Shown here: in pieces, positions 1-37,100 of the stretch
How the letters are laid out: each line of letters starts with the position of its first letter
Position numbering within the stretch: the first letter of the stretch is position 1
NCBI GenBank assembly: GCA_038999265.1
Contig: JAWAAR010000002.1
Location: 1-47,579 of the forward strand
Length of the DNA stretch: 47,579 nt
Direction: 5' to 3'
Source: Candidatus Aenigmatarchaeota archaeon
GTDB lineage: Archaea > Aenigmatarchaeota > Aenigmatarchaeia > CG10238-14
Notes under the pieces: generated by a model
What the model was told of the DNA's origin: nothing
Databases searched by the model: none
The model's input: the letters and a program-made list of their open reading frames with translations, nothing else
Program-made: the position numbers and the translations under genes

Positions 1-1113
1 CCATACAAAATTATCATAATCCTTGCCATCTATTAGATGATAAAGAGGTGTATTTATCTTATCCTTGATGGAAAAGTAGGCTGTAATCCCAAGCAAAACT
101 ATTAGTATAATTAGACCAAATTTTTTTGGCTTCATTTCCAGTATTTTTACAAATCCAGCAGATGTTATGACATTCATAAGAATGAATAGTGGCATGTAAA
201 CCCTTTGGTAAGGGATCAGATAATTGATTTTGAAATTTGCAAAAAGAGCGAGATTTATTATTAGGAAAAAGACCGAGAAAATTATTGAAAGGAATTCCTT
301 CCTATTTTTTTGTGAAAGTGAGTAGGAACCCACTAGGAAAAAAAATGTTGGTATATATCCATATAATGTTGGAATTCCTCTCAATGTTATCCAGAAATTA
401 AATTTAACACTTTCTATACCTTTGTTTTTTATTTCCTGAACATAGTTTGGAATGGAAAGGATAAGAGATACCAAGATGGAAATTAACAAGAATTTTGAGT
501 TTGGGTCTCCTTTAAGTAACGATAGAATTAGATAAAACCCTAAAATCAGGAGTAAAGCCATGGCCGAAGGGGGATGTGAATAAAGAAGATATGTCAGTGA
601 AACTGAAAGTAATAGATAATTTAGTTTGTTTTTAATTCCAAACAGATTGAATGCCATTAAGAGTGAAAAGGGAATAAAAATCATGCTAAGGTTTACGGGA
701 ACAAGGAATATCGGGCCACCTATAGTCAGGTTGGAAGGTATTATTGCTGTTAAAAATGCTGCAATAAGTCCTTGGGTCTTACCGAGTAACTTCGAAACAA
801 ACACAAAAATTACAATTATTGAAATAGAGTGAATGATGAGAGGGACAAAAATCCATTCTTTTGGATCCAATTTAAAAATTAGTTGGAAGAATGAAAGAGT
901 CAAGTGCCAACCTCTTTCCATTCCCAATCTAAAGGGTTTTCCAGAATACCAATCTATATCTTGCTCGGATGCCATCATCTTTGCTTCAGATATATGAAAC
1001 CATTCATCCACATGGATTGGATAGGGGTAATTTAAATGAGGGTAAAAAGTGAGAAAACAACCTAATATTATTATAATAGTTAATAGAATTTCTTCTCTCA
1101 TAGACTCTATCAT
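1..1113 (-). CDS. Polytopic membrane protein, N-terminal ~370 aa (3' end runs off the window); possibly a GT-C-type (STT3/PMT/ArnT-like) glycosyltransferase
   Basis: Absent from the ORF track because no stop lies in the window. I checked every plus-strand triplet in register 1-3, 4-6 ... up to 1101 and found no tta/cta/tca, so the minus frame is open to the edge. ATG at 1113 or 1101 (MIESMREEILLTIIIILGCF...). Many hydrophobic segments. The acidic loop PIHVDEWFH after the first helix is only weakly reminiscent of GT-C enzymes. Confidence 0.6.
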   Translation of the reverse strand, partial: MIESMREEILLTIIIILGCFLTFYPHLNYPYPIHVDEWFHISEAKMMASEQDIDWYSGKPFRLGMERGWHLTLSFFQLIFKLDPKEWIFVPLIIHSISIIVIFVFVSKLLGKTQGLIAAFLTAIIPSNLTIGGPIFLVPVNLSMIFIPFSLLMAFNLFGIKNKLNYLLLSVSLTYLLYSHPPSAMALLLILGFYLILSLLKGDPNSKFLLISILVSLILSIPNYVQEIKNKGIESVKFNFWITLRGIPTLYGYIPTFFFLVGSYSLSQKNRKEFLSIIFSVFFLIINLALFANFKINYLIPYQRVYMPLFILMNVITSAGFVKILEMKPKKFGLIILIVLLGITAYFSIKDKINTPLYHLIDGKDYDNFVW

Positions 1114-36231: not shown

Positions 36232-36813
36232 ATGAAAAAAGCCCAGATGTCACTTGAGATGATTATCGGATTATTAATTTTACTTGTAGTTGCTGTAGTT
36301 GTTATAAGAATATTTTTGAAAGGTATGAGCCAAAATCCACAGGATCAGTTTGAACAGACATTAAAGGACATGAACTTTATAGGGGAATGTGACAGACTGT
36401 GCAATGAGTATAAAAATAGTGGTACAAGAGCTGCTTTGGCAAAATTCTGCTACACTAAGATGACTGGAAATCCAGATTTAAACAAGAATGGGAAGATTGA
36501 CAAATTAAAAGCTAAGACAAAACTCCTTGAAATCTGCGAGGATTCAGTTTACTGCTTTCATATGACAACCTGTGAGACTGATGCCGGAATTATAGACTGG
36601 AGTGACTGTAGGGATGCTGTGTGTAATGAATATATAGAAATATATACTAGTGCTGGATATGGCGATGCATTAGATAGAGCCAATAGAAAAGTTTCAAGTT
36701 TATTCTCACTAGGATCATGTACCGGTATAGGAGATGAAGAAAATTGGATGAAATTGTTTTTCAGTAATCCATCAAACAGAGATGATCTCGAACATCCATG
36801 TGGAACCACATAA
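36232..36813 (+). CDS. Class III signal peptide pilin-like Cys-rich protein; paralog of 11686..12498
   Basis: MKKAQMSLEMIIGLLILLVVAVVVIRIF. The shared core is CNEYKNSG...FCYTKMTGNPDLNKNGKIDKLKAKTKLLEICEDSVYCFH. Confidence 0.7.
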   Translation: MKKAQMSLEMIIGLLILLVVAVVVIRIFLKGMSQNPQDQFEQTLKDMNFIGECDRLCNEYKNSGTRAALAKFCYTKMTGNPDLNKNGKIDKLKAKTKLLEICEDSVYCFHMTTCETDAGIIDWSDCRDAVCNEYIEIYTSAGYGDALDRANRKVSSLFSLGSCTGIGDEENWMKLFFSNPSNRDDLEHPCGTT

Positions 36814-36845
36814 ATTTTAAATATTTTCTACAACTCTATTAATTT

Positions 36846-37057
36846 GGGTGAGTTGGTCAGATAGCTTCGCCCTGTCCTCAAAAACAGGGTGAGGAATTTC
36901 CATCCATAGAGGGGAAGATACCGAGAGGCTATTGTTGATATCAGAAACGATACCCACGGGTTGAAACGGATCAACAACCCCAATGAAATGCAAGCCCCCG
37001 AGGCGCTTAGATGGATGCTATCTTAAACACAAAAGATGGGATATGGCCAACACACCC
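36846..37057 (+). ncRNA. rnpB: RNase P RNA, apparently size-reduced (~212 nt)
   Basis: Hand-traced pairings. P1: 36846-36858 with 37045-37057 (12 of 13 pairs). P2: AGATAGC 36859-36865 with GCTATCT 37017-37023. P3 hairpin: CCCTGT 36870-36875 with ACAGGG 36884-36889. CR-I-like GAGGAATTTCCATCC at 36891-36905. CR-IV-like TAGATGGATG at 37008-37017. CR-V-like ACACAAAAGATGGGATAT at 37027-37044. P4: 36898-36904 with 37035-37041. The order of the 3' elements mirrors E. coli M1 (CUAGAUGAAUGACUGUCCACGACAGAACCCGGCUUAUCGGUCAG). Locally GC-richer than the flanks and contains no ORF. Confidence 0.75.
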
Positions 37058-37100
37058 ATTTTATAAAGTATTTAAGCTTTAATTTTCTCCTATAATTCAA

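Follow-up and report, generated by a model that had tools for sequence, protein, structure and literature searches.

RNase P is a universal ribozyme that trims the 5′ ends of tRNAs. Three types of archaeal RNase P RNA are currently distinguished, A, M, and T (PMC13462272, 2026), and we drew the definitions of these types from PMC3579882, PMC5499556, and PMC9371926. Organisms with type T RNAs lack the protein subunit Rpp21, an absence that has been tied to loss of the specificity domain (PMC13462272, PMC3579882). P12 is regarded as being among the most conserved helices, and its natural absence was known only in Mycoplasma fermentans, the Thermoproteaceae, and two CPR bacteria (PMC8172020, 2021). 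In archaeal RNase P, L7Ae is known to bind in P12 and P16–17. M. jannaschii RNase P in which all kink-turns were mutated still assembles and cleaves, with L7Ae kept through Rpp21–Rpp29 (PMC9371926). Published archaeal RNase P RNAs are described as lacking a joining region at P5/P7, except for 2 nt in Vulcanisaeta (PMC3579882). Our literature search, the coverage of which was incomplete, found no account of P12-less archaeal RNase P RNAs outside the Thermoproteaceae.

We analyzed a 47,579-nt stretch of DNA (the window) from a Candidatus Aenigmatarchaeota archaeon (Aenigmatarchaeota, DPANN; genome G000, 791,539 bases, 54 contigs, 97% complete), in which a reading made from the letters alone (the sequence-only reading) had placed an RNase P RNA of ~212 nt at 36846–37057. 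Consistent with this placement, a cmscan of the window under an E-value threshold aligned the archaeal model RF00373 to 36848–37055 (+) over model positions 1–288, at 67.9 bits and E 8.7e-19. A genome-wide search with RF00373 returned the same locus (E 3.2e-19) as the sole RNase P RNA candidate, and no full-length RNase P RNA was found elsewhere in the 97%-complete assembly. At the gathering threshold, Rfam gave zero matches in the whole window; the score of 67.9 lies below the RF00373 gathering score of 84, and default annotation therefore misses the gene. A tRNA scan of the window returned zero genes. The GC content was 0.47–0.49 at 36846–37057 compared to about 0.30–0.38 in the flanks, the single-sequence fold of the 212-nt RNA had a z of −5.1 relative to shuffles, and our own covariance model, R1, scored the RNA at 231.7 bits. 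A structured, GC-enriched RNA is present at exactly these coordinates. Very probably, it is functional and serves as the catalytic subunit of the only RNase P in this organism; what is established about RNase P would lead us to expect this compact RNA to cleave the 5′ leader of pre-tRNAs.

The features of the locus are collected in Table 1. The P1, P2, P3, and P4 pairings and the CR-I, CR-IV, and CR-V strings lie where the sequence-only reading had traced them, and the distance that it put at ~100 nt, from the P4 5′ strand to CR-IV, is exactly 100 nt (36905–37004). Its statement that the usual specificity-domain strings are missing did not hold. Strings of the ACAGAAA / GGGUGAAA type had been called absent, but AUCAGAAACGAUA and GGGUUGAAACGG are present and are invariant in relatives. 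CR-II is one half of the T-loop module that recognizes the tRNA elbow. CR-II (AUCAGAAACGAUA) and CR-III (UUGAAACGG) align, with posterior probabilities near 1, to the archaeal-model consensus strings ACAGAAACGA and UGAAACG, and both are invariant in 32 relatives. The specificity domain is minimised, as had been proposed, in being compact and in having lost P8 and P12, but it keeps P7, P9, P10/11, and the CR-II/CR-III T-loop module.

Table 1. Features of the RNase P RNA locus. A position in the window is the RNA position plus 36845.
Feature	Position in window	Position in RNA	Strand	Basis or remark
Upstream ORF, last of pilin-like locus	36232-36813			weak match to class III signal peptide (18 bits, under cut-off)
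TATA box, TTTAAATA	36816..36823		+	−30 to −23 from RNA 5′ end; same distance in 18 family members
RNase P RNA gene	36846..37057		+	212 nt, ends set by P1; RF00373 match, covariation
P1	36846..36858 / 37045-37057	1-13 / 200-212	+	double-sided changes in 12/12 pairs, 79 sequences
P2, 7 bp	36859..36865 / 37017-37023	14-20 / 172-178	+	covaries
P3 hairpin	36868..36891	23-46	+	compensatory changes in 7/11 pairs
CR-I with P4 5′ strand	36891..36905	46-60	+	GAGGAA invariant
P4	36896-36904 / 37035-37042	51-59 / 190-197	+	covaries; compensatory changes in 6 of 8 pairs; bulged U at 36899 (RNA 54), its column unpaired
P5 5′ strand (CAU), candidate K-turn strand without bulge (A-GA), P7 5′ strand (GGGG)	36905..36914		+	K-turn parse
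P5		60-62 / 143-145	+	
P7		66-69 / 133-136	+	
P9 hairpin	36918..36932	73-87	+	covaries; GAGA tetraloop nearly invariant
P10/11	36933..36939 / 36970-36976	88-94 / 125-131	+	compensatory changes in 9/9 model pairs
CR-II (J11/12), AUCAGAAACGAUA	36940..36952	95-107	+	CAGAAA invariant, 32 sequences; aligns to model consensus
P12 stub, 2-bp stem and 4-nt loop, CC-CACG-GG	36953..36960	108-115	+	42-55 nt helix in relatives
CR-III (J12/11), UUGAAACGG, GGG before	36961..36969	116-124	+	UGAAA and G invariant
P7 3′ strand (CCCC), 3-nt bulge AAU, tandem GA, A, P5 3′ strand (AUG)	36978..36990		+	candidate K-turn bulged strand
J5/15, CAA		146-148	+	
P15 stub hairpin, 3 bp, loop CCCGA	36994..37004	149-159	+	covaries; without L15, P16, P17, P6
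CR-IV	37005..37018	160-173	+	aligned to model consensus; G, C, AGA, AUGC invariant
CR-V with P4 3′ strand	37028..37043	183-198	+	model alignment, invariant nucleotides, covariation
Oligo-T run	37059..37062		+	directly 3′ of P1; T-rich runs after the 3′ end in 18/18 family members shown
Downstream gene, 333 aa	37101-38102			HD_4 domain, 29 bits

Relative to the archaeal consensus, cmscan showed deletion of P8, 2 nt in P12 compared to 47 model positions, and 5 nt in the P15–P17 region compared to 39. The gap between P7 and P9 is 3 nt, at a place where relatives in f2, f3, g2, and g6 carry a 10–14-nt hairpin (P8). Between J5/15 and CR-IV, only 11 nt are present and fold as a 3-bp hairpin; this segment is 8–14 nt long throughout the order. 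The nucleotides saved are accounted for by P12 (~40), P8 (about 10–14), and, for the remainder, by L15, P16, and P17 of the catalytic domain, which are missing order-wide.

In 37 of 41 related genomes, RF00373 matched a single RNA. Lengths were 233–298 nt for the majority of the order, 208–210 nt in the window genus, and 217–220 nt for three RNAs in two other genera. A 32-sequence alignment showed that the ~40-nt shortfall compared to family relatives is the P12 helix, that P8 is variable between families of the order, that the P15 stub is order-wide, and that the CR-I to CR-V nucleotides are invariant. Covariance model R1 was built on six compact RNAs, and 80 of its matches, 79 of them distinct, were aligned. 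Standard pairs occupied 95.6% of cells in the 79 sequences, compared to 33–47% with slid partners. Double-sided changes occurred in 43 of 53 pairs, and none of 500 shuffles reached the observed values. P2, which was left out of R1, also covaries among 36 order-level RNAs (AU 20 / GC 14, UA 28 / CG 7, and AU 28 / GC 7). For P5, P7, and the tandem GA, pairs counted by alignment column are unreliable because these helices are absent from R1, and we used a per-sequence parse for them. Within the window genus (G000, G001, and G004), compensatory changes were found in P1, P3, P7, and P10. The complete catalytic core and the tRNA-elbow module are under purifying selection.

Two further RNA copies came to light in these searches. 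An archaeal RNase P RNA of the window-genus type (243 bits to R1) is encoded on a 5.9-kb contig, CAYZYZ010000047.1 (L039:4697-4910), whose MAG is labelled Candidatus Saccharibacteria. It shares 97% identity over 259 bp with Aenigmarchaeota contig PFTQ01000043, with unmatched flanks, and the contig is probably mis-binned or mislabelled. G009 (L018:655-768, G009:C19) has a partial second copy, running from the P7 3′ strand to CR-V, at about 730 nt downstream of its RNase P RNA gene. The copy shares about 70 identical nt with the main gene, lacks P1–P3 and the S-domain, and looks like a duplicated gene fragment.

The gene sits between a pilin-like locus and an HD-hydrolase gene, flanks that had been described correctly, and its TATA box begins 3 nt past the stop codon of the upstream ORF. 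The oligo-T run after P1 is likely to be an archaeal terminator. Because the TATA box and T-run lie at fixed distances in 18 family members, the ends defined by P1 are probably the transcript ends. Among public sequencing runs, only two, both of hot-spring metagenome DNA, contained the sequence, at small shares, and no RNA run was listed; we conclude nothing from this about expression or habitat. A scan for sigma-70 promoters and intrinsic terminators, which are bacterial signals not applicable to archaea, returned nothing above chance. All five protein subunits scored above Pfam cut-offs and are encoded in open frames: Rpp21 (Rpr2/Rpp21; 49.4 bits, 103 aa), Rpp29 (99.8 bits, 105 aa), Pop5 (62.5 bits, 126 aa), the adjoining Rpp30 (134.6 bits, 237 aa), and L7Ae (96.7 bits, 118 aa). 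The presence of Rpp21 fits the retention of P10/11 and the CR-II/CR-III module. A search of the genome for the protein-only RNase P HARP (PIN_5) did not find it.

In the mechanism that we propose, the 5′ leader of pre-tRNA would be cleaved at an active site that has P4 and the junctions of CR-I, CR-IV, and CR-V, and the CR-II/CR-III module would stack on the T/D-loop elbow of pre-tRNA and measure the acceptor/T-arm. Without L15, the RNA cannot pair with the 3′-CCA and so, like type M RNAs, should depend on proteins, which would be Pop5–Rpp30 and Rpp21–Rpp29. The kink-turn site for L7Ae in P12 is gone, and L7Ae could still join through contacts with Rpp21–Rpp29, in the way seen for the M. jannaschii kink-turn mutants, or through a loop between P5 and P7. 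By analogy with those mutants, P12 would be dispensable in the archaeal five-protein enzyme.

Scanning the RNA for the kink-turn pattern gave one match compatible with the secondary structure, located between P5 and P7. The parse is cauA[GA]gggg with cccc(AAU)[GA]Aaug, in which P7 is the C helix and P5 the NC helix. AAU (RNA 137–139) forms the 3-nt bulge and is followed by tandem sheared pairs, G140•A65 and A141•G64, and then by A142•A63. Among 36 RNAs of the order, 26 have the canonical pattern and 24 its strict form, compared to 0.4% of segment shuffles; the other 10 deviate, for example by having A at position 2n. In the same set, the bulge is mostly GAU or AAU, as in box C. Both flanking helices covary, P5 as cau/aug, cac/gug, cgu/acg, and cgc/gcg and P7 in many variants. 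Twenty RNAs from other Aenigmatarchaeota orders have no P5/P7 loop, their P7–P5 3′ strand being contiguous. A few Micrarchaeota carry the motif, and most P12-less Micrarchaeota and Iainarchaeota RNAs are without it; we therefore rejected the idea that a hinge kink-turn is required for loss of P12. These sequence patterns make it an evenly balanced proposition that the P5/P7 loop, with its 3-nt bulge and tandem G•A/A•G pairs, forms a kink-turn and is bound by L7Ae at the hinge joining the two domains. The loop is a candidate for a new or relocated L7Ae site, and the only such candidate in the window RNA.

The reading that best survives alongside a hinge kink-turn is that the window RNA is a functional RNase P RNA whose P5/P7 loop is an ordinary internal loop, with L7Ae held only by Rpp21–Rpp29 or having left the enzyme. 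We give this reading substantial weight, somewhat short of an even chance. L7Ae is retained through protein contacts in the kink-turn-less M. jannaschii mutants (PMC9371926), yeast Pop3 stays without a kink-turn (PMC10966300), and most other P12-less DPANN RNAs manage without such a loop. Against it, the loop matches the K-turn consensus exactly (a C helix, a 3-nt bulge whose last base is U, tandem GA/GA, and an NC helix), the motif is conserved together with covarying flanks in 24–26 of 36 RNAs compared to 0.4% by chance, and other archaeal RNase P RNAs are reported to lack so large a joining region (PMC3579882).

With respect to P12 itself, a canonical kink-turn is clear only in families f2–f6. 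In the closest family, f1, a kink-turn in P12 was considered for its AUGAU...GAC(G/A)UC boxes and was rejected, as no consistent C helix was found by rule. The f1 relatives (L019, L035, and L027) do carry conserved boxes in P12, GGGAUGAU and a palindromic GACGUC at alignment columns of about 140–175, that are box C/D-like.

Loss of P12 extends well beyond the window genus. Taking the GTDB representative genome of each species, we looked for CR-II and CR-III parted by only a short stub. This survey returned 65 loci, of which 55 match the archaeal compact model and belong to Micrarchaeota, Iainarchaeota, Aenigmatarchaeota, and Pacearchaeota. In this 55-species set, P12 spans 9–23 nt and full-length matches span 193–295 nt. 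The window RNA is not the smallest in public data, where RNAs of 193, 195, 202, and 208 nt exist, and its genus has the shortest among 129 matches from a 151-genome sample of Aenigmatarchaeota (next are 217, 218, 226, and 227 nt). Pattern matches labelled as bacterial (Dehalococcoidia, Kiritimatiellae, and others) gave no match to the archaeal model. Judged by sequence, they resemble bacterial RNase P RNAs whose P12 is a short hairpin of 6–8 bp, and we rejected them as P12-less.

P12-less RNAs occupy at least four separate places within the family on a weak single-gene RNA tree from which P12 columns were excluded, and one GTDB genus holds both forms, with P12 being 47 nt in G017 and 13 nt in G020 and G013. 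The stubs also differ: in the window genus, 2 bp are capped by a UUCG or CACG tetraloop, and elsewhere 4 bp are capped by a GNRA loop. The mixed genus, the scattered tree positions, and the unlike stubs together indicate that loss of P12 is recurrent. Joining both ends of the full G015 P12 (L021), ACCUUCG...GGAUG, directly to each other gives the G004 stub, ACCUUCGGGAUG (L034), and a single internal deletion could thus have made the C(UUCG)G tetraloop of that stub. Truncation of P12 with retention of the tRNA-elbow module is therefore common as well as recurrent in DPANN, being found in at least 55 species of four phyla and in RNAs down to 193 nt.

A bolder scheme, which we regard as tentative and on balance unlikely, is that a hinge K-turn with L7Ae in this Aenigmatarchaeota order sets the angle between the domains, that it relaxed the need for the P12 kink-turn, and that it allowed the at least four P12 deletions in one family; taken with the RNAs of Micrarchaeota, Iainarchaeota, and Pacearchaeota that lack P12, this arrangement would then define a fourth architectural class beside A, M, and T. 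The candidate hinge kink-turn offers a testable idea about where L7Ae is placed. The coexistence of a truncated RNA with the full five-protein set provides a natural counterpart of the kink-turn-less M. jannaschii mutants, and these small natural RNAs could serve structural and reconstitution work on proteins that replace RNA struts.

In the 151-genome sample, 44 of the 129 Aenigmatarchaeota matches score below the Rfam gathering threshold, and 22 genomes have no RNase P RNA match at E 1e-5. RF00373 under-detects the Aenigmatarchaeota. Since such genes fall below the gathering threshold, genome annotations will wrongly call RNase P RNA absent. Three Aenigmatarchaeota MAGs (G155, G107, and G147) each have two full-model matches on different contigs, which could be duplicate genes, strain mixtures, or contamination.

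The sequence-only reading had suggested an independent reduction of the type T kind, in which the specificity domain is essentially lost and RNA-based recognition of the tRNA elbow is gone. There are real likenesses to type T (PMC3579882): a size of ~200 nt (212 nt falls in the reported type T range), merely 100 nt between P4 and CR-IV, a missing P12, and a score that escapes the standard archaeal model threshold. However, type T RNAs are without CR-II and P10–P12 (P10 ending in a small loop or missing), whereas the window RNA keeps a covarying P10/11 and intact, invariant CR-II and CR-III. Type T RNAs keep L15/P16/P17, with a kink-turn there, and the window RNA has none of these elements; P2 is 3 bp and the P5/P15 linker 2 nt in type T compared to 7 bp and 3 nt (CAA) here; and type T genomes lack Rpp21, which the window genome encodes. 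None of the type T criteria that we tested applies to the window RNA, and we consider a type-T-like minimisation highly improbable. What stands of the suggestion is a lineage-specific shrinkage in an AT-rich DPANN lineage unrelated to the Thermoproteaceae; the likeness to type T does not. Overall, the earlier observations are partly confirmed and their interpretation is partly supported.

That the RNA is a nonfunctional relic of an RNase P being lost, as in Nanoarchaeum equitans, is barely credible: the organism is a DPANN archaeon with a very small genome (0.79 Mb), N. equitans did lose RNase P, the Nst1 RNA is much shortened and could not be folded (PMC3655853), and P12 has been lost repeatedly, but the compensatory changes among the three species of the genus argue against a decaying gene, as do those within the family, the invariant core nucleotides, the conserved promoter and terminator, the five intact protein genes, and the failure to find an alternative RNase P.

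The window RNA is best described as type-M-like, with P12 additionally removed, and not as type-T-like. Like type M RNAs, it is without P8, L15, P16, P17, and P6, has P15 as a simple hairpin, and shares the CR-I to CR-V core and P10/11; the same five protein subunits, Rpp21 included, are encoded in both. The absence of P8 is itself variable in type M, as Archaeoglobaceae variants keep it. Of the features that define type M, loss of P8 and loss of L15–P17/P6 were thus found and a long P12 was not: P12 of type M is long and carries a double kink-turn to which L7Ae binds, whereas P12 of the window RNA is an 8-nt stub, a tetraloop on 2 bp, and the window RNA is about 40 nt shorter than the type-M-like RNAs of its own order. 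A K-turn-like P5/P7 loop of 3 nt/6 nt, which the window RNA has, is not described for type M. The nanoarchaeon Nst1, likewise a DPANN member, has an RNase P RNA reported to be shorter than type T that could not be folded (PMC3655853), whereas in the window RNA every core helix is present and five proteins are encoded. M. fermentans and the two CPR bacteria (PMC8172020) resemble our organism in having reduced genomes and RNAs in which P12 is naturally deleted and the CR-II/CR-III module kept. Their RNAs are of the bacterial type and work with one protein, however, whereas the window RNA is archaeal and belongs to a five-protein enzyme in which P12 normally holds an L7Ae site.
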